Source of the DNA: Escherichia phage vB_EcoM_G5211
Reading direction: 5' to 3' (one strand)
Sequence record: MK327947.1
DNA length: 64,000 nucleotides
Shown: positions 5,548-60,272 of the stretch, in pieces
How positions within the stretch are numbered: the first letter of the stretch is position 1
Layout: each line of letters starts with the position of its first letter
Made by a program: the position numbers and the translations under genes
Notes under the pieces: model-generated
What the model was told of the DNA's origin: nothing
What the model saw: the letters and a program-made list of their open reading frames with translations, nothing else
Databases searched by the model: none

Positions 5548-7448
5548 CAAAGCAAAAGATTACACAAATTCCTGATATTTTTAATGCTGCTACATTCGAT
5601 GAAATTAAAAGCGCATTAACAGACTGGATGAGAAACCAGGAAGAATTTAAAGATTTTGATTTTAATGGTGCTGGTATTAACGTATTGATGGACTTGCTCG
5701 CATATAATACCCTTTATATTCAGCAATTCGCCAACGCCGCGCTATATGAATCTTTTATCAGAACGGCAATTAAGCGTAGTTCAGTTGTTCAAGCCGCGCA
5801 AGATTTAGGATATTTGCCAGCAAGTAAAACTAGTGCATCAACTACAATTATGTTGCATGTATCACATCCACGAAATCCGGCAAGTATTCGAATCCCACGA
5901 GGAACTAAATTTATTGCAAGTGTGGACCGCCAGACGTCTTATCCGTTTGTTACTACAGAAGACGTTGTGAGCGTTTTAGGTTCAAATGGTTTATATACTC
6001 CTATGCTTAAAGTCGCACAAGGTCGTATTGTTCGTACAGAAATGTTATTTGATCCGAAGAAACAAATTCTGATCCGCGATCCTGATATTGACCGCGCTCA
6101 GGTTAAATTGTGGGTGGATGGGGCTGAATGGAAAGACTGGACGCGAGAAAGTATTGTTAATGCAACTGGCGCCAGTAATATTTTCTATATGCGTGAAACC
6201 GTAGACGGTCATACAGAAATCTTCTTTGGTGAAGGTGAATCAACTTTATCTGCTGCTGGCGGTGCACTGGAAGCAAATTATATTGGTGGACTTAAGCCGT
6301 CAACTGGTGCTAATATTGTTATTGAATATATTAGCACTAAAGGCGCGGAAGCAAACGGATCTGTCAATTTCACATACGCGGATACCCTTGCATCTATCTC
6401 TATTGTTAAAATTATTGAGAATCCGACAAATGATCGTGATTATGTCGGTGCAGATGGTGGTGGTGATCCTGAATCAATCGAACGTATTCGTGAACTTGCT
6501 CCGGTAATGCGTGAATCTCAGCGTCGTTGTGTTACTGCTTCCGACTATGAGGCTTTTGTATCTAGCCGTTTTGGTAGTATTGTTCAGGCGGTACAATGTT
6601 TCACCGATCGAGAAAAACCAGGTTATGCTTTTGTTGCTGTTAAGCCTAAATCTGGTTTGCGATTGACAACTATTCAAAAAGAAGATATGCGGGATTATCT
6701 GGCAAAATATAACCTTGCCCCTATCACACCGAGCATCATTGACCCTAACTATCTGTATATTAAACAGAATATTAAAGTTTCCTATTCAATCAATGACTTA
6801 TCAGAATCAGAGCAGTGGTTGCGCGGTGCGGTTATTGATCAGATTGATGCATATTATACCGACGAAGTGGAAATTTTTAACCAGACCTTTAGTAAGTCTA
6901 AAATGCTTGCGCGTATTGACAAAGCTGATGTATCTGTGATAGGTTCTAGTGCAGAAATAGAGATGGTTCGAGAGATCGACAACTTCTATAAAGCACCTAT
7001 GGCGGGAATCAAGTTTTTAAACCAGTATAAGAGCGGAATCAAGTCTAGTTCGTTCAACTTCGAAAAGGACGGTAAACAATACCCGATCCATTATGTAAGT
7101 ACAGAAATGAACAAAGAATCCGGTTTAGCTAAATTGCTGGTTGGACCTTTCCCTGTTGATTCTACAATCGCTTTACCGCACTATTCCGGCACTGATTTTG
7201 ATAAAGAGGTTATTGACGGTGCGGACCTATACTTTGAGGTTGGAGAGGTTCAGCATTATGACGACCTTATTTCATGGGATCTGGGTAAACTGAATATCAA
7301 TAGCGATCGCTTTACTGGTTCATATATTGAGTTGACAGCTAAACCGATTGCTGATAACATCTTTACTAAAGACGGTTCTTTGATCGTGTTTGAAAACGAT
7401 CTCCGTCCTCAGTACACAACTATTAGTCTGGAGGCAATTGCTCAATGA
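5544..7448 (+). CDS. 6: gp6 baseplate wedge protein
   Basis: 634 aa; order and size match T4 gene 6; overlapping start/stop with neighbours. Confidence 0.8.
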
Positions 7449-54076: not shown

Positions 54077-54108
54077 GTTTGATTCTCCTTTCGTTTCGGT
54101 ATGTGTGC

Positions 54109-54138
54109 ATTATAGGGGATCTCCGACCCCCCTGTCAA
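54109..54138 (-). promoter_or_regulatory. Early promoter cassette (TTGACA, 18 nt, TATAAT) with GATC palindrome in spacer
   Basis: tgtcaa at 54133-54138, attata at 54109-54114; spacer ggggatctccgacccccc. Confidence 0.65.
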
Positions 54139-54145
54139 CAACTTT

Positions 54146-54664
54146 TTAGTTATTTTTTAATTGCTCATCTTGCAATAGGGCAATCACATGCTGGCGATGT
54201 TCTTCCGATTGAGGAACACCGAAAAAGTTTGTTTTGTAGAAATACTCTAATCGGTCTTCTCGTGTGCTCTCTTCCATCATGATCGCGGGTAGTCCGAGAT
54301 TTCGGAAACGTCGCTTTTCTGCTGGCGTAAAATCACTGTAATACAACATAGAATCATCATTACCAGCAATGCTAAACTCATCATTCATGAAGGAGAATAT
54401 TGCGTTTAAACGCTGTTTACCGTCCACGATTTCGATCTCATAGCGAGAGCCATCATCAATCTTAGCCATTGCGATAGCACCAACCGGAAAATCATTAATC
54501 AGGTTTTCGATAAACATACGTTTGTTTTCGGTGTCCCATACCAAAGGACGCTGATAATCTGGGTTCATGTTGATATAGCCATCTTCTAACCATGCATCAT
54601 AAACAGAGATGACAAAGTTTTTAGTATTGGTATAGTAACGGCGTTTAGGCGTTAAACGGTTCAT
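54146..54664 (-). CDS. DUF262 / ParB-like nuclease-domain protein (DGQQR-type motif)
   Basis: PDYQRPLVWD and IVDGKQRLNAI motifs; ATG at 54664 immediately follows upstream stop (alternative start 54700); about 172 aa. Confidence 0.6.
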   Translation of the reverse strand: MNRLTPKRRYYTNTKNFVISVYDAWLEDGYINMNPDYQRPLVWDTENKRMFIENLINDFPVGAIAMAKIDDGSRYEIEIVDGKQRLNAIFSFMNDEFSIAGNDDSMLYYSDFTPAEKRRFRNLGLPAIMMEESTREDRLEYFYKTNFFGVPQSEEHRQHVIALLQDEQLKNN

Positions 54665-54665
54665 G

Positions 54666-54995
54666 TTATAGTCTCCTGAATGGATCATCACGTAAATCAA
54701 TATCTTTTAAGAACTCATCCCATGAATGGCGGATATTGTTCTTAATTCTCCAGATAAGCGCAGGGATTGAACGCTCTCCCATCTGGAAGTAAGGATCATA
54801 TGATCCGTATGCCCAATATGCTACTACAATTCCACAGTCAGCGCAATAGTATTCTATTTCACTTGCTGGCGACCAAAGTCCATCAATATGATCAGTGATC
54901 TTGCTTTCGATGTTATGACTATGACAATCAGGGCAACGGATGCAATGACCTTGTTTATCGTAATTTGACGTTAGAGAATACTTAAACAATCTCAT
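54666..54995 (-). CDS. Cys-rich zinc-ribbon protein (109 aa)
   Basis: CIRCPDC and CADCG Cys pairs; start overlaps upstream stop (TAATG). Confidence 0.5.
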   Translation of the reverse strand: MRLFKYSLTSNYDKQGHCIRCPDCHSHNIESKITDHIDGLWSPASEIEYYCADCGIVVAYWAYGSYDPYFQMGERSIPALIWRIKNNIRHSWDEFLKDIDLRDDPFRRL

Positions 54996-55711
54996 TATAG
55001 ATCCTTATTGGCTTCAAATACTGCCTTTGCGAATCCTCGCGGGGTAAGTGACCTGATAGTCTTTGTTCTGGTTCCTTTCCCGCCTAGCTTAGAATGCTGT
55101 TTACTGTACCCTTTATTAATCTGCAACGGTTTCTTTTCTGGCATTATAAAGCCTTGTCCGGTCCATAAGCAAGTCTTTTTCGGGTACATATCACGGGCGG
55201 CAATATACTCAGGAAACGTAGGATGCTTATCATCTTCCGGCAAATAACCGCCATATTCCCACGGATGGAACATGTAATCAGGCTTACGCCACATACTAGA
55301 GATAACGCTTACAGGATTCTCTATCATGTAGGGAACTCCTAGCCATTCACCCAAATAAGCGGTTATTTTAGCTGTCCGTACATCATGAACTTGAATCAAT
55401 GGTCCTTGTTCTCGTTTCTTTCGTTCAAAGTGTGCAGCGCCACTAACAGCTAAATTGGTGCACGGTGGGAATGCAAAGATAATATCCGGTTTCCCCCATT
55501 CAAGGTCCATTGCTCTTTCCAGCCAGTTCAAATCAATCCAGGTGTTTACATAAGTAATGTTTGGATGTTCAAATCTGGTATTATACTTTTTGTATGTACC
55601 GTGGTCGGCGTCATCCGCATTAAAGCAGACTACCTTATGACCTGCTTTAGCCCATTCTAGCCCCATTATCCCCGATCCGTCAAAGTTGCAGAATATTAAT
55701 TTTTGTTTCAT
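54995..55711 (-). CDS. Compact DNA cytosine-5 methyltransferase-like protein
   Basis: Motif I-like FDGSGIMG, motif IV PC (FAFPPCTN), motif VI-like IENPV, C-terminal RSLTPRGFAKAV; 238 aa, short for a canonical C5-MTase. Confidence 0.5.
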   Translation of the reverse strand: MKQKLIFCNFDGSGIMGLEWAKAGHKVVCFNADDADHGTYKKYNTRFEHPNITYVNTWIDLNWLERAMDLEWGKPDIIFAFPPCTNLAVSGAAHFERKKREQGPLIQVHDVRTAKITAYLGEWLGVPYMIENPVSVISSMWRKPDYMFHPWEYGGYLPEDDKHPTFPEYIAARDMYPKKTCLWTGQGFIMPEKKPLQINKGYSKQHSKLGGKGTRTKTIRSLTPRGFAKAVFEANKDL

Positions 55712-56201: not shown

Positions 56202-56241
56202 TGTTTGATTCTCCTAAGTGGTATCTCGTCTTGATGGTTGT

Positions 56242-56270
56242 ATTGTAGGGGAGTTATCCTCCCCTGTCAA
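56242..56270 (-). promoter_or_regulatory. Early promoter cassette (TTGACA, 17 nt, TACAAT) with palindromic spacer
   Basis: Spacer ggggagttatcctcccc is an inverted repeat. Confidence 0.6.
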
Positions 56271-56284
56271 CACTTTTTATAAAA

Positions 56285-56452
56285 TTATTTGTTAATTTCT
56301 GGTGCGTTGCTAGGATAGTAACCTTCTTTAACTCCGAGGTATTTCGCAACCATCCCTACAATCTTCTGTGCTACTACAATGTCAAATTTCAGATAATCTT
56401 CGCCGTGGGTTTCAATGATATATGCTTCACATGCTGCTTTAGTCTCGAACAT
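56285..56452 (-). CDS. Small protein (55 aa), paralog of 59551-59718
   Basis: MFETKAACEAYIIETHGEDYLKFDIVVAQK...; 48/55 residues identical to the second copy. Confidence 0.55.
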   Translation of the reverse strand: MFETKAACEAYIIETHGEDYLKFDIVVAQKIVGMVAKYLGVKEGYYPSNAPEINK

Positions 56453-56485
56453 TTTGATTCTCCTATTTCGTTTCGGTATGTGTGT

Positions 56486-56514
56486 AGTATAGGGGATCTC
56501 CCGATCCCCGTCAA
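56486..56514 (-). promoter_or_regulatory. Early promoter cassette (TTGACG, 17 nt, TATACT) with GATC palindrome
   Basis: Spacer gggatcgggagatcccc; conserved leader and RBS. Confidence 0.6.
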
Positions 56515-56528
56515 CAACTTTTTTAAAA

Positions 56529-56810
56529 TTATTCGTGATTAGTTTCGATATTGTGCATTTTGCACCAGTTCAGCCAATCGCCCAGATCTTTATAGTTGAT
56601 GCTTTTATCTGCTGCCATCGTTTTTGTCTTGATACCCATATGTGCGTTATGAGTAAGCATTTTTACAGTGAACTCAATTTTATCGCCTTTAGCTTTAACA
56701 TCAACCAGTTTGGTCCACTGGCTACCAGCGCCGCGAATGTTCATACCAACGATGTTTCCGATGTATGCTTCTTTGTTTTTCAGGATTTCGGTTGCTTTGA
56801 TGAATTTCAT
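56529..56810 (-). CDS. Hypothetical early protein (93 aa)
   Basis: ORF with promoter cassette upstream. Confidence 0.5.
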   Translation of the reverse strand: MKFIKATEILKNKEAYIGNIVGMNIRGAGSQWTKLVDVKAKGDKIEFTVKMLTHNAHMGIKTKTMAADKSINYKDLGDWLNWCKMHNIETNHE

Positions 56811-56843
56811 TTTTGATTCTCCAGTTCGTTTCGGTATGGGTGT

Positions 56844-56872
56844 ATTATGCTATGTTCTTACTTTGGTGTCAA
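56844..56872 (-). promoter_or_regulatory. Early promoter cassette (TTGACA, 17 nt, CATAAT)
   Basis: tgtcaa 56867-56872 and attatg 56844-56849 on plus strand. Confidence 0.65.
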
Positions 56873-56880
56873 CAACTTTT

Positions 56881-57150
56881 TTAGATATTTTCAGAAATAA
56901 ATTTTAAAACTTGACGTAAATGTTTCTCATCTTTGATAGTCGCCGGAAGTTCTTCTTTTACTTCCTGTGCAAGATAGATATTTCCGTTCCAAGTGAAAGA
57001 TCCGTCTTTGTTTACGCGATAGCTGAACATCCACTCGCAATCATTTTCGATTTCATATACACACAGAAGGGTGTAATCGTTAAAGCTATTGATTTCAAGG
57101 TCGAAGCCGTGACGTTTTGCAAAGTTGGTAGTGGTTTTAGTCAGTGCCAT
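56881..57150 (-). CDS. Hypothetical early protein (89 aa)
   Basis: ORF with promoter cassette upstream. Confidence 0.5.
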   Translation of the reverse strand: MALTKTTTNFAKRHGFDLEINSFNDYTLLCVYEIENDCEWMFSYRVNKDGSFTWNGNIYLAQEVKEELPATIKDEKHLRQVLKFISENI

Positions 57151-57190
57151 TGTTTGATTCTCCTAAGTGGTATCTCGTTTCGATGGGTGT

Positions 57191-57219
57191 ATTATGCTAT
57201 AGGCTAGATCAGGTGTCAA
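57191..57219 (-). promoter_or_regulatory. Early promoter cassette (TTGACA, 17 nt, CATAAT)
   Basis: tgtcaa 57214-57219 and attatg 57191-57196. Confidence 0.65.
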
Positions 57220-57242
57220 CAACTTTTTTAATTTTTTGGAAA

Positions 57243-57270
57243 TAAAAAAAGCCGACACTAAGGTCGGCTA
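57243..57270 (-). terminator. Rho-independent terminator (minus strand)
   Basis: A7 + hairpin gccgac-actaag-gtcggc. Confidence 0.6.
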
Positions 57271-57276
57271 ATAAAA

Positions 57277-57585
57277 TCATTTAGACAAATAATCATTCTG
57301 TGCAATCCGGTCGGCGTATGCTGGTGTTATGTCAATCGCCAGCACTTTAACGCGTGCTTTCTTGCGACCTGTGTTTTCTCGTAACCAGTGCTCATGACCG
57401 TGAACATTTTTATACTGCGATGCTTCTTCGAAGGTACGGATCGGACCTGGATAATCTGCGTAAAGGATCTCTAGGTCTTCGGTGATGTAAAAATATACAT
57501 CATAATTACTGTTCTCTAGTTTAAGCAGAGACTTTCGGAACATTGGGAGATTTTCGCGGGTAAATTCAAAGATATTATCTTTCAT
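57277..57585 (-). CDS. Small protein of the H-x-H-W paralog family (102 aa)
   Basis: YDVYFYITEDLEILYADY...HGHEHW...VKVLAIDI; paralogs at 58005, 58298, 59016. Confidence 0.55.
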   Translation of the reverse strand: MKDNIFEFTRENLPMFRKSLLKLENSNYDVYFYITEDLEILYADYPGPIRTFEEASQYKNVHGHEHWLRENTGRKKARVKVLAIDITPAYADRIAQNDYLSK

Positions 57586-57609
57586 AGTATTATCCTCAAT
57601 AGTTGGATG

Positions 57610-57630
57610 AAAAGGGGGCTTAACGCCCCC
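57610..57630 (-). terminator. Rho-independent terminator (minus strand)
   Basis: A-run + hairpin gggggc-ttaa-cgccccc; same motif as 53588. Confidence 0.6.
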
Positions 57631-57635
57631 ATATA

Positions 57636-57923
57636 TTAAAACAGACCTTCCTGTACACCGTAGTAGAGTTCATCGCTGATAATTTCATTAATGCGACGGT
57701 GTGCATATTCCTGATTTGCGAAGTTGTCAGCAAGTTCTACTTTAGTTTCGCCGTCATGAGTCCATTTAGTGATAACTTTACCATCTGCAAATTTGAAGTT
57801 GAACTCTTTAGCTACCGCATCGCGTACCAGACGTGCAAACTTATTGTTGCGGATTGCATTGTCGGTTTCGTGTGCAGCGTGAGCGAATTTGTTAACTTTC
57901 AGAGTGATAGTAATGTATGCCAT
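57636..57923 (-). CDS. Hypothetical early protein (95 aa)
   Basis: ORF with promoter cassette upstream and terminator downstream. Confidence 0.5.
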   Translation of the reverse strand: MAYITITLKVNKFAHAAHETDNAIRNNKFARLVRDAVAKEFNFKFADGKVITKWTHDGETKVELADNFANQEYAHRRINEIISDELYYGVQEGLF

Positions 57924-57969
57924 AATTTGATTCTCCTAGTTAGAAAGTGTATCTCGTTTCGATGGGTGT

Positions 57970-57998
57970 ATTATGCTATACACCCAACCTCATGTCAA
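57970..57998 (-). promoter_or_regulatory. Early promoter cassette (TTGACA, 17 nt, CATAAT)
   Basis: tgtcaa 57993-57998 and attatg 57970-57975. Confidence 0.65.
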
Positions 57999-58004
57999 CA
58001 CTTT

Positions 58005-58283
58005 TTATAAAATAATTTTTTGATATTTTTCTATGATGTTCGTGTAATTCACATCAACCGCTAGCACCGTTGCTTCGAATCCACCGTTTAGCCAATGGCT
58101 ATGATCGTGATCGTGAAAGAAACCTAGACCAGTACGAAGACCTTCTTTATATTCGGCGCGTACATTTAGATCATCATCGATAAACAGATAAAACCATGAA
58201 TTTTTACTAGGATTGATGATACAACCTTTCAGATTCGGGAGAATATCACGACTAAGAATAAACTTATCACCTACTTTGAACAT
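58005..58283 (-). CDS. Small protein of the H-x-H-W paralog family (92 aa)
   Basis: SWFYLFIDDDLNVRAEY...HDHDHSHW...TVLAVDV. Confidence 0.55.
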   Translation of the reverse strand: MFKVGDKFILSRDILPNLKGCIINPSKNSWFYLFIDDDLNVRAEYKEGLRTGLGFFHDHDHSHWLNGGFEATVLAVDVNYTNIIEKYQKIIL

Positions 58284-58297
58284 AATATTTTCCTCAC

Positions 58298-58606
58298 TTA
58301 TAAAGTTTGACCGTTGTTTTTCGCATAATGCTTAATGCGTGCTTGATCTGCTTCCGCTGGTGATAGATTCCATGCAACCACTACAACTTCTGACGCATCG
58401 TCATCCGTTTCTGATACCCAATGGTTGTGATTCATACAGTTATTTGCTATCGAGTGAGCAAATGATTTCATCACTGGAGACGTATAATCATAGTAACGGA
58501 TTTTCAGATTTTCATCAACATACAAGTAGATCGTATAAGGTTTATATTCAGTAACCAGTAACAGACAGTTACGCAATTCTGGGAAAATCTTTTTAGTTAA
58601 TTTCAT
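58298..58606 (-). CDS. Small protein of the H-x-H-W paralog family (102 aa from ATG 58606)
   Basis: YTIYLYVDENLKIRYYDY...NHNHW...VVVVAWNL; ATG 58606 with RBS gagga, 1 nt after upstream stop. Confidence 0.5.
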   Translation of the reverse strand: MKLTKKIFPELRNCLLLVTEYKPYTIYLYVDENLKIRYYDYTSPVMKSFAHSIANNCMNHNHWVSETDDDASEVVVVAWNLSPAEADQARIKHYAKNNGQTL

Positions 58607-58607
58607 T

Positions 58608-58817
58608 TTATAATCCTCGGTCGCGGCTATAGTACACGGTACGCCATACAATTTCATGTTTCGTGTCGCTCCAGCACACGATCTCATTTACTCTTAAATC
58701 TTTGTTATCAACAAAAGATGAACATTGTGACGCTTCTTTCATCATTTTATCTGCTGTTTTCTCATCAAATACAGCACAGATTTCTTTATACACTCGATAA
58801 TCTTTAAACTTGCTCAT
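58608..58817 (-). CDS. Small protein, MSKFKDY family copy B (69 aa)
   Basis: MSKFKDYRVYKEICAVFDEKTADKMMKEASQC...; paralog of adjacent copy. Confidence 0.45.
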   Translation of the reverse strand: MSKFKDYRVYKEICAVFDEKTADKMMKEASQCSSFVDNKDLRVNEIVCWSDTKHEIVWRTVYYSRDRGL

Positions 58818-58819
58818 AA

Positions 58820-59035
58820 TTAACACCAATCAAGAGTTTTTGAGAAAACCTCTATCCATTGTTGAGTATATGCGGTTTCTTTCCATGATACAATACCAGT
58901 AGAATAATGGTTTTTGTTTCCAGAAAATGACGGGCATTTTGATGCATCTTCCATCATCTTTTCGGCGAACTCTGGTTCGTATACTCGCAAGATCTGTTGA
59001 TATGCTTTATAATCTTTAAATTTGCTCATAATCAT
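58820..59035 (-). CDS. Small protein, MSKFKDY family copy A (71 aa)
   Basis: MIMSKFKDYKAYQQILRVYEPEFAEKMMEDASKC...; tandem to copy B. Confidence 0.45.
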   Translation of the reverse strand: MIMSKFKDYKAYQQILRVYEPEFAEKMMEDASKCPSFSGNKNHYSTGIVSWKETAYTQQWIEVFSKTLDWC

Positions 59036-59294
59036 TCACTACCTTATCAGCTTCTTTTGTTGTTTTTACATCAACTGCGATAACCCGTAAAGGTTCGTCA
59101 TGGTTCCACCAATGATCGTGAATATCGGCTTGTGATTTATCACCAAAGGAATCACGAATATCATTTTTACTTTTATAGCTAATGTGACCGTCATAGTCAA
59201 CATAAAGGTAATTATCGAAAATCGGCGTTTTTAAGATCATGCCGAAAAATCTTTCTTTGTGTGTCTTATCCAGCGTTGCAGTAATTCGCATCAT
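59016..59294 (-). CDS. Small protein of the H-x-H-W paralog family (92 aa)
   Basis: NYLYVDYDGHISYKSKND...HDHWW...RVIAVDV. Confidence 0.55.
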   Translation of the reverse strand: MMRITATLDKTHKERFFGMILKTPIFDNYLYVDYDGHISYKSKNDIRDSFGDKSQADIHDHWWNHDEPLRVIAVDVKTTKEADKVVNDYEQI

Positions 59295-59306
59295 AATATA
59301 TTCCTC

Positions 59307-59486
59307 TTAGAAAGGGATGGTCATTTCTTGAGCTTGTACATTCTCGTTAGGATTAAACTTCATCCAACCAATATTGTCTACCAGCATATGCACATTTTTA
59401 TCATATCCTACGTGAGTAGTCAACACTAAATGTGATTTACCTTCAACGATGATTTCCATGTACTTCTGAACTTCGATAGCTTTCAT
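59307..59486 (-). CDS. Hypothetical early protein (59 aa)
   Basis: ORF MKAIEVQKYMEII... with RBS ggagaatc; below ORF-track cutoff. Confidence 0.4.
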   Translation of the reverse strand: MKAIEVQKYMEIIVEGKSHLVLTTHVGYDKNVHMLVDNIGWMKFNPNENVQAQEMTIPF

Positions 59487-59518
59487 TTTGATTCTCCGTT
59501 TGTTGTCTTGATGGGAGT

Positions 59519-59547
59519 ATCTTACTACTCCCTTTAATCATTGTCAA
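59519..59547 (-). promoter_or_regulatory. Early promoter cassette (TTGACA, 17 nt, TAAGAT)
   Basis: tgtcaa 59542-59547; weaker -10. Confidence 0.45.
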
Positions 59548-59550
59548 CTA

Positions 59551-59718
59551 TTATTTGTTAATTTCTGGTGCGTTGCTTGGATAGTAACCTTCTTTAACAC
59601 CCAGATATTTTGCAACCATTCCGGTGATCTTCTGTGCTACTACGATATCGAATTTCAGGTAGTCTTCACCGTGTTTTGCTACAATGTATGCTTCGCATTC
59701 TGCTTTAGTCTGGAACAT
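59551..59718 (-). CDS. Small protein (55 aa), paralog of 56285-56452
   Basis: MFQTKAECEAYIVAKHGEDYLKFDIVVAQK...; own promoter. Confidence 0.55.
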   Translation of the reverse strand: MFQTKAECEAYIVAKHGEDYLKFDIVVAQKITGMVAKYLGVKEGYYPSNAPEINK

Positions 59719-59752
59719 TTTTGATTCTCCTATATCTCGTTGGTATGTGTGT

Positions 59753-59782
59753 ATTATAGGGGATCTCCCGATCCCCTGTCAA
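59753..59782 (-). promoter_or_regulatory. Early promoter cassette (TTGACA, 18 nt, TATAAT) with GATC palindrome
   Basis: Spacer ggggatctcccgatcccc, identical to the 56492-56508 spacer core. Confidence 0.65.
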
Positions 59783-59795
59783 CAACTTTTTTGAA

Positions 59796-60272
59796 TTATT
59801 TTTCTTGATGCTCGCGCTCGTACTTTTCGAAATAAAATTCTACTGGCTGGTCATGAATTGACAGCAAGCCAAAGCGTTTAGCCGCTCGCAATCCCATATT
59901 GCGCTGAATGTACTTCTGGAAGTTCTCGCGTATACACTTACGCCAGTATTCTAAGCCCATACAGCTTTTATAAAGATTGCATTGTACACACGCCGGATTC
60001 ATGTTATCAAGTATATCATGTTCCGGTTTATGCATTCCTACAACCTTATACTTCCACGACCCATCATCATTACGGGCAATTCGTCCATTTTCATCATAGA
60101 CTACCTTTGAGCGTCGCAATACTGGTTTGATATGGTCTGCGTGCCAGCGATCCCCTAGTTCCTCGCCACAATAGGCACAACGCCCACCGTATTTCATTTT
60201 CAGGATCTGGCGTTGCTCTTTCTTTGACAATTTTTTAGGTTTAGGGGCTTTCGCCCCTTCATTATCACACAT
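59796..60272 (-). CDS. HNH endonuclease (possible homing endonuclease)
   Basis: CAYCGE...HADHIKPV...N...CVQCN: Cys pair-HNH-Cys pair architecture; 158 aa; overlaps ligase stop. Confidence 0.7.
   Translation of the reverse strand: MCDNEGAKAPKPKKLSKKEQRQILKMKYGGRCAYCGEELGDRWHADHIKPVLRRSKVVYDENGRIARNDDGSWKYKVVGMHKPEHDILDNMNPACVQCNLYKSCMGLEYWRKCIRENFQKYIQRNMGLRAAKRFGLLSIHDQPVEFYFEKYEREHQEK

Follow-up and report, generated by a model that had tools for sequence, protein, structure and literature searches.

Two copies of a 55-residue early gene in promoter-early stem-loop cassettes of a Krischvirus: an old paralog pair with apparent continuing sequence exchange

Promoter-early stem-loops (PeSLs) were defined by Arbiol, Comeau, Kutateladze, Adamia, and Krisch in 2010 in the hyperplastic region of phages RB49 and phi1 that holds open reading frames ORF191 and ORF205 (PMC2839356). 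By that definition, a PeSL holds the upstream stop codon in an AT-rich stretch and a sigma-70 consensus promoter with a G-run/C-run stem-loop inside or next to it, together with a Shine-Dalgarno sequence (SD) and a start codon; about 50 are present per genome, chiefly in hyperplastic regions and upstream of ORFans (PMC2839356). Here, we analyzed the counterparts of these two genes in a 64,000-nucleotide stretch of Escherichia phage vB_EcoM_G5211 (sequence record MK327947.1), hereafter the window, in which they form a pair of 55-amino acid ORFs that we call copy A (ORF191) and copy B (ORF205). We consider it likely that they are an old paralog pair residing in PeSL cassettes, whose copies are still exchanging sequence and causing deletions, a reading that fits the published model of PeSL shuffling.

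The functional background comes from the 2010 study (PMC2839356). PeSL206/205 of RB49/phi1, which precedes copy B, yielded ∼13,000 Miller units and is thus a very strong promoter; its clones mostly gained mutations in the −35 or −10 box, suggesting that cloning does not tolerate a native promoter of this strength. The stem-loop of PeSL211/210 terminated transcription about as well as rrnB T1. Nearby PeSLs recombined to give mini-circles, one of which contained ORFs 191–194 and hence copy A, and the crossovers lay between the −10 box and the ATG. The passages of the 2010 paper returned by a term search make no mention of a paralogy between ORF191 and ORF205.

Our locus resembles the RB49/phi1 PeSL and ORFan cassettes (PMC2839356; Comeau et al. 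2014, PMC4122927) in genus, region, and genes. Copy A is ORF191 of the sequenced 191–194 mini-circle, and the copy-B cassette is the counterpart of PeSL206/205. The order of elements is the same (AT-rich part, −35, hairpin, −10, SD, ATG), and indel breakpoints fall inside PeSLs. Unlike in the published cases, the coding repeats here also appear to be recombination substrates, both for conversion and for a start-codon crossover in phage Cognac. Furthermore, the PeSL of copy B (PeSL-B) departs from the published PeSL206/205 in its loop and upstream part, being a hybrid from the loss of ORF206–211 with a loop otherwise typical of the PeSL of copy A (PeSL-A). The promoter cassette is therefore known already, experimentally characterized, and found before unrelated genes too; new relative to the papers cited are the paralogy, the evidence that the copies evolve in concert, and naturally occurring deletion variants with junctions inside the repeats.

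Other described systems share parts of this organization. The morons of lambdoid and other siphoviruses are likewise single small accessory genes with autonomous expression signals; however, they are thought to move by illegitimate recombination, whereas in the PeSL model the cassette itself supplies the homology for movement, and they are prophage-expressed, whereas the genes here are early lytic. Integron gene cassettes offer an analogy only: they too form small promoter-proximal arrays of accessory genes that can be released as circles and taken up again at conserved repeats, but here there is no integrase and no attC/attI, and movement would proceed via general homologous recombination between PeSLs. 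The tufA/tufB genes of Salmonella and Escherichia coli are bacterial paralogs in concerted evolution by gene conversion. They share with our pair two dispersed, direct-orientation copies, short conversion tracts, and polymorphisms matching the other copy. Homogenization is much weaker in our pair, in which 15% nucleotide divergence and six amino acid differences persist, and the unit is 168 nt long and viral.

Both 55-amino acid ORFs were found in the ORF list on the minus strand, copy A at 56285–56452 and copy B at 59551–59718, as an earlier note on this DNA had placed them; the local genes around them are all on the same strand. The proteins share 49 of 55 residues (89%) without gaps (BLASTP, E = 2e-37), one more than the 48 counted in that note. 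Over the 168 nt of the coding sequences (CDS), 26 positions differ (84.5% identity), which amounts to 16 synonymous and 6 non-synonymous codon changes, and the last 15 codons differ by a single base. Start to start, the copies are 3,266 bp apart, in keeping with the ∼3.2 kb given before. Copy A is 98–100% identical to orthologues of RB49 ORF191 (RB49p191), and copy B corresponds to RB49 ORF205 (RB49p205) according to the RB49 annotation and its family match. The surrounding 4.4-kb region matches 58 phage records at 94–97% identity. Every one of these is a Krischvirus (RB49, Phi1, JSE, kaaroe, and phiS among them), indicating that the window derives from this genus of RB49-like T4-type coliphages. 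In the window, both copies sit among small hypothetical ORFs between alt and the DNA ligase gene, that is, in the hyperplastic region. These comparisons support the view that A and B are true paralogs.

Among the 58 Krischvirus records, six of which are RefSeq/GenBank twins, both copies are present in 51, one copy in 7, and zero copies in none. This distribution bears first on the concern that the pair is a collapsed or mis-joined repeat created during assembly. Only the generic risk that repeats carry speaks for such an artefact, and we regard its probability as negligible: the two copies are distinct at 26 of 168 nt and in their flanks, and the two-copy arrangement, with distinct flanks, recurs in dozens of independently sequenced genomes, RB49, Phi1, and JSE included.

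Each copy lies directly behind a promoter cassette, as had been noticed before. The cassette of copy A (PeSL 193/191, 56453–56528, minus strand) consists of an AT-rich part, a −35 box TTGACG (56514–56509), a hairpin (56509–56492), a −10 box TATACT (56491–56486), and an SD GGAG (56463–56460). Its promoter reads TTGACG-17-TATACT (56514–56486) and matches the sigma-70 consensus hexamers at 10 of 12 positions. The cassette of copy B (59719–59795, minus strand; fold z-score = −2.8) contains −35 TTGACA (59782–59777), a hairpin (59776–59759), and −10 TATAAT (59758–59753), giving a promoter TTGACA-18-TATAAT (59782–59753) with 12 of 12 hexamer matches. In both promoters the spacer is the hairpin GGGGATC-GGGA-GATCCCC, with a 7-bp stem and a 4-nt loop. 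The corresponding 18-mer ggggatctcccgatcccc (plus strand) occurs at 56492–56509 and 59759–59776 and has no third occurrence in the window. The spacers alone fold with −12.5 and −12.7 kcal/mol, and the hairpin persists in the minimum free energy and centroid folds of the complete 76–77-nt cassettes.

A second PeSL follows each copy. PeSL 191/190 (56202–56284, minus strand; z = −3.7), directly downstream of A, has the stem-loop GGGGAG-GATAA-CTCCCC and a promoter TTGACA-17-TACAAT for the ORF190 orthologue. In PeSL 205/204 (59487–59550, minus strand; z = −4.5), downstream of B, the −35 box comes straight after the stop codon and the stem-loop GGGAGTA...TACTCCC overlaps the −10 box. These two belong to another subclass than the PeSLs upstream of the copies. 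All four flanking cassettes have 7-bp hairpins, an AT-rich leader holding the upstream stop codon, and an SD and ATG. Thus, each copy is a single-gene cassette bracketed by PeSLs.

The published sequence features of PeSLs are all present: promoter hexamers with a 16–18-nt spacer, a G-run/C-run stem-loop between or overlapping the boxes, and an SD with a start codon at the 3′ end of the cassette (GGAGAATCAAA(A)ATG), in a hyperplastic location among hypothetical ORFs between alt and DNA ligase. A further such sequence feature reads ...cacgaaTAAttttaaaaaagttgTTGAC in A and ...gaaaaaTAAttcaaaaaagttgTTGAC in B. PeSLs are also crossover sites at which related phages undergo insertions, deletions, and replacements, and here we found breakpoints near 59790 and hybrid PeSLs in JK32/Brandy, FL04, the window, and phiS. 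What the earlier note had called a GATC-palindrome promoter therefore appears to be a PeSL, an element already described. Searches of Rfam returned no family match in the region.

We next asked how old the pair is. Between A and B, non-synonymous divergence (dN) is 0.059 and synonymous divergence (dS) is 0.99, with dN/dS = 0.06 (NG86), as opposed to dS values of 0–0.22, mostly below 0.15, when eight neighboring genes were set against orthologues from up to eleven Krischviruses. Mean differences within paralogs are 3.6 nt (A) and 4.4 nt (B), and between paralogs 23 nt; residue positions 3, 7, 13–15, and 32 separate the A and B groups fairly consistently. The high dS together with the genus-wide presence of both copies argues that the pair predates the sampled Krischvirus radiation. 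The duplication is old, and both copies are under strong purifying selection.

These numbers go against the proposal of the earlier note that a gene-plus-promoter module was recently duplicated within this genome, which we now judge very improbable. The proposal has in its favor that both promoters share an identical 18-nt spacer sequence, that the PeSLs are 89% identical in the window, and that the last 15 codons differ by one base. A recent segmental duplication is nevertheless hard to reconcile with a dS near 1 between the copies, with the occurrence of both in 51 of 58 records, and with homology that stops at the stop codon. The points in its favor also have other explanations, which we consider in turn.

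Aligning the two modules with their flanks defined the boundaries of the repeat. Homology specific to the pair runs from the ATG to one base past the stop codon (TAAT), and further downstream only generic promoter and SD elements are common. PeSL-A and PeSL-B are 89% identical, but this PeSL type is shared with unrelated genes. A third PeSL of the GGGG(A/G)TC...GATCCCC type (54077–54152, minus strand) precedes the unrelated ORF186 orthologue and is 84% identical to PeSL-A and 83% to PeSL-B, a comparable similarity. The 5′ untranslated region (UTR) of PeSL-A (accgaaacgaaatagg) is closer to this third PeSL than to the 5′ UTR of PeSL-B (accaacgagatatagg). In other Krischviruses, the GGGGATC-loop-GATCCCC type stands before ORF210, ORF209, ORF186, and the gene at the ORF185 position. 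A module comprising gene and promoter is therefore not established.

The loops point in the same direction. Across twelve other genomes, the PeSL-A loop is almost always GGGA. The PeSL-B loop is GGT in RB49, ECD7, kaaroe, Brandy, and the IMG/VR contig L004, as well as in the hybrid copy of Cognac, and ACC in Phi1, MIZ4, PTE-Eco09, phiS, and JK32. The A and B loops thus differ in all ten of the other examined phages whose B locus is intact. Among the window and the twelve other genomes, a GGGA loop in a B context is found only in the window and in the single hybrid copy of FL04. Because the loops differ elsewhere, the identical spacer is private to the lineage of the window, a product of PeSL shuffling or conversion and no trace of the original duplication. 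The 18-nt identity thus does not show joint copying of promoter and gene. PeSL-B of the window is itself a hybrid, owing to the missing ORF206–211 orthologues: its left part is the cassette that elsewhere follows the HNH gene (ORF212), and its 5′ UTR is of the PeSL206/205 type. Most Krischvirus alignments break near 59790, within its AT-rich part. As a separate observation, the GGT and ACC loops at the PeSL206/205 position (near 5759 in locus L001 and near 1642 in locus L012) are exact reverse complements, and the palindrome looks flipped; this could reflect hairpin inversion or a swap with oppositely oriented PeSLs.

To the near-identity of the 3′ ends, gene conversion offers an explanation. 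A nucleotide table of 20 copies revealed mosaics in both directions. Copy A of PTE-Eco09 has a B-type 5′ UTR and B-type codons 3–8. Conversely, the B copies of Brandy and PTE-Eco09 are A-type at six diagnostic sites in a row within codons 17–25, and the A copies of Cognac, kaaroe, ECD7, and phiS carry B-type bases in codons 38–40. Of 25 sites that are polymorphic within a group, 18 hold the consensus base of the other paralog, against a chance expectation of ∼5% per site. These tracts reflect gene conversion between A and B, which accounts for the near-identity of the last 15 codons in the window; among the copies compared, those sites also occur with the allele of the other paralog.

The repeats also mark the ends of natural deletions. 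Between the copies lies a block of ∼11 small early ORFs (56529–59486, minus strand; orthologues of RB49 ORF193, 194, and 197–204). Cognac and FL04 lack this block: each has one copy, with the ORF206 context upstream and the ORF190 context downstream, and everything between B and A is gone. In Cognac, promoter and UTR are B-type and the CDS is A-type from codon 3, placing the crossover between SD/ATG and codon 3. In FL04, the upstream context is B-type and everything from the stem-loop on is A-type, placing the crossover in the AT-rich/−35 part. The crossover points differ, and the events are therefore independent. A second kind of junction was found in JK32 and Brandy, in which copy A is precisely absent and ORF193 is followed by one hybrid PeSL and then ORF190. 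This hybrid joins the left part of PeSL 193/191 to the right part of PeSL 191/190 between −10 and SD, a zone that coincides with the mini-circle crossover zone of Arbiol et al. (PMC2839356). Larger PeSL-bounded losses that include copy A affect ORF191–186 in MIZ4 and roughly ORF198–190 in contig L004. Brandy has no A now, yet its B holds an A-type tract, which suggests that the absence of A in this phage is secondary.

PeSL-bounded deletions are also seen upstream of copy B. In the window, the orthologues of RB49 ORF206–211 (∼2 kb) are missing, and as a result the HNH endonuclease gene (59796–60272, minus strand; RB49 ORF212 orthologue) abuts PeSL-B. phiS has the same gene order as the window at HNH/copy B but a different 5′ UTR in its hybrid PeSL, and PTE-Eco09, JK32, and kaaroe retain differing subsets of ORF206–210. 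Together, the phiS UTR and these subsets indicate several independent PeSL-bounded deletions. Two ideas about the HNH gene were discarded. The 158-amino acid gene upstream of B might have been RB49 ORFan192, implying a cassette hop between the paralogs; it has no BLASTP similarity to RB49 ORF192, the unrelated neighbor of copy A in RB49, and is the ORF212 HNH orthologue. Nor did we find reason to invoke homing-endonuclease-associated mobility of the duplicated gene, as the HNH gene is fixed beside DNA ligase in all phages examined.

Both copies match phrog_8009, a family of unknown function, over profile positions 1–55 of 55 (E = 7e-38 for A and 3e-38 for B). The protein is small and slightly acidic. 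It has no match in Pfam and no relative in a PDB sequence search, and Foldseek against viral structures returned nothing below E = 1.9. An AlphaFold model of low confidence (predicted local distance difference test, pLDDT, 67.7) places helices at residues 5–16 and 18–39, followed by a disordered but highly conserved tail (GYYPSNAPEINK) with the motif GYYPSN. Positions conserved across the family are F2, T4, K5, C8, E9, Y11, I12, G17, Y20, K30, L39, G44, Y45, S48, and N49. By inference, the protein probably acts in the cytoplasm as an immediate-early accessory factor that binds other proteins, and we guess that its partner, of host or phage origin, is engaged early in infection. Because either copy can be lost and never both, the two are presumably at least partly redundant.

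Few relatives turned up in protein databases. A word-indexed search of 5.8 billion clustered proteins gave 4 close relatives, and an exhaustive HMMER search of 1.8 billion representative proteins only 3–4 credible small ones, the long multi-stretch matches looking spurious. IMG/VR added only two further loci, and a scan of species-representative genomes found no relative. In siphoviruses, homologs occur in swi2, SeSz-2, D10, Pu29, and Bas81 (66–72% identity) and in the Sasha group (∼44%), with a few weaker matches at 38–41% (E up to 0.1). The swi2 homolog has a plain sigma-70 promoter with no hairpin, and its two-gene unit ends in a terminator. Other homologs lie in prophage- or satellite-like islands by ghrA-ycdX-tRNA-Ser of an enterobacterium other than E. 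coli (flank 76–77% identical to E. coli), where they adjoin homologs of ORF193 (58%) and ORF194 (40%), the neighbors of copy A. The closest of all non-Krischvirus homologs, P0003, is 83% identical to A and 78% to B and comes directly after an ORF194 homolog. The island loci (about 4000–4860 in L016–L018 and 5484–5926 in L015) have the gene order 191-193-194 in L016–L018 and 194-191 in L015, as compared with 194-193-191 in the phage; the island also holds a terminase-small-subunit-like gene (phrog_57), and none of 5,426 complete E. coli genomes contains the island.

These homologs raise the alternative that the copies are xenologs from two acquisitions. One copy, probably A with ORF193/194, would have come from a divergent phage or a prophage-like element through recombination at PeSLs, and the 89% identity would partly reflect later conversion. 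Several observations are compatible with this scenario: the family moves horizontally (it reaches Swiduovirus-type and other siphoviruses, with 38–72% identity), enterobacterial islands hold it beside the ORF193 and ORF194 homologs, P0003 is nearer to A than to B and follows an ORF194 homolog, and a dS of ∼1 far exceeds the divergence within the genus. However, A and B remain each other's closest relatives at 89%, protein searches, IMG/VR, and genome scans revealed no donor lineage with an A- or B-type allele outside Krischvirus, and the island genes could equally derive from Krischvirus. We therefore consider two acquisitions unlikely.

Duplication within the lineage, followed by long retention and continued exchange, remains the reading we prefer. 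Documented here are the anatomy and orthology of the pair, its age and the selection on it, the conversion tracts, and the deletion junctions; promoter strength, terminator activity, and mini-circle formation are taken from the literature (PMC2839356). Right after infection, host RNA polymerase would start at the PeSL of each copy and transcribe the gene behind it. Lying upstream of the transcription start, the hairpin would be present only in read-through RNA from upstream genes and, per the published PeSL model, would attenuate that read-through. The second copy would most likely go back to an ancestor of the sampled Krischviruses in which a cassette was excised and re-inserted through its PeSLs, and strong purifying selection has kept both copies. 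The copies and their PeSLs are repeats in direct orientation, carried by a phage in which homologous recombination is highly active, with three expected consequences: short tracts would be exchanged by gene conversion; unequal recombination would delete the 3–4 kb between the copies and leave one hybrid copy; and a crossover between its two flanking PeSLs would remove a cassette precisely.

Several points weigh against this reading. For vB_EcoM_G5211 itself, transcription, termination, and recombination rest on sequence and on the literature. No T-run follows the PeSL hairpins, a terminator scan does not call them, and the fold z-score of PeSL-A is weak (−1.25). The dS estimate comes from 55 codons, is noisy, and is also blurred by conversion. 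Junctions alone give no polarity: A deleted in JK32 and A inserted elsewhere look alike. A second copy transferred from another phage, improbable as we find it, would replace duplication within the lineage. Finally, the role proposed for the protein is unsupported by any Pfam, PDB, or fold match and comes with a low-confidence model.

With these reservations, the locus gives the model of PeSL-based modular shuffling in T4-type phages a concrete example at the level of sequence, in which a cassette was duplicated and the copies were long kept. About a dozen genomes show three recombination outcomes, namely conversion tracts, unequal-crossover deletion, and precise cassette excision. At least one copy is kept in every Krischvirus record and homologs occur in siphoviruses and islands, making the protein a reasonable candidate for functional study among early ORFans. 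We regard the case as a tidy extension of a published mechanism that leaves current understanding unchanged and is of modest interest. A bolder version, to which we give still less credence than to acquisition from another phage, holds that the paralogous cassettes are direct-repeat handles that make the ∼11-gene block a reversibly excisable, transferable 3.3-kb mini-circle. If so, keeping two diverged, recombining copies would be part of how Krischviruses trade the block, and the Cognac and FL04 deletion variants would be empty-site products.

The neighborhood of the pair contains further features. The bracketed block includes a diverged paralog family with 25–34% identity, formed by the ORF197, 199, 200, and 203 orthologues (57277–57585, 58005–58283, 58298–58606, and 59016–59294, minus strand), which share the pattern Y-x-Y-[VI]-D...H-x-H-W...V-x-A-[VI]-D and have no Pfam match. 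The ORF201 and ORF202 orthologues (58820–59035 and 58608–58817, minus strand) are adjacent tandem paralogs (43.5% over 62 amino acids, E = 3e-16). With these additional paralogs, this short region is rich in old duplications. The only two canonical hairpin and T-run terminators inside the block lie at 57250–57269 and 57614–57630 (minus strand), after the ORF197 and ORF198 orthologues. On the far side of copy A, the RB49 ORF189 orthologue (54995–55711, minus strand) is annotated as a DNA methyltransferase (Dcm in kaaroe), has no Pfam match at E ≤ 0.01, and is deleted along with copy A in MIZ4.

Lastly, the GATC within the PeSL palindrome might have pointed to a Dam-related peculiarity. This idea found no support, as GATC is neither depleted nor enriched in the window (375 observed, 346 expected). 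Across the whole window, GGCC is strongly under-represented (24 observed versus 73 expected from trinucleotides) and AGCT is low too (0.64), a shortage that may reflect restriction avoidance.

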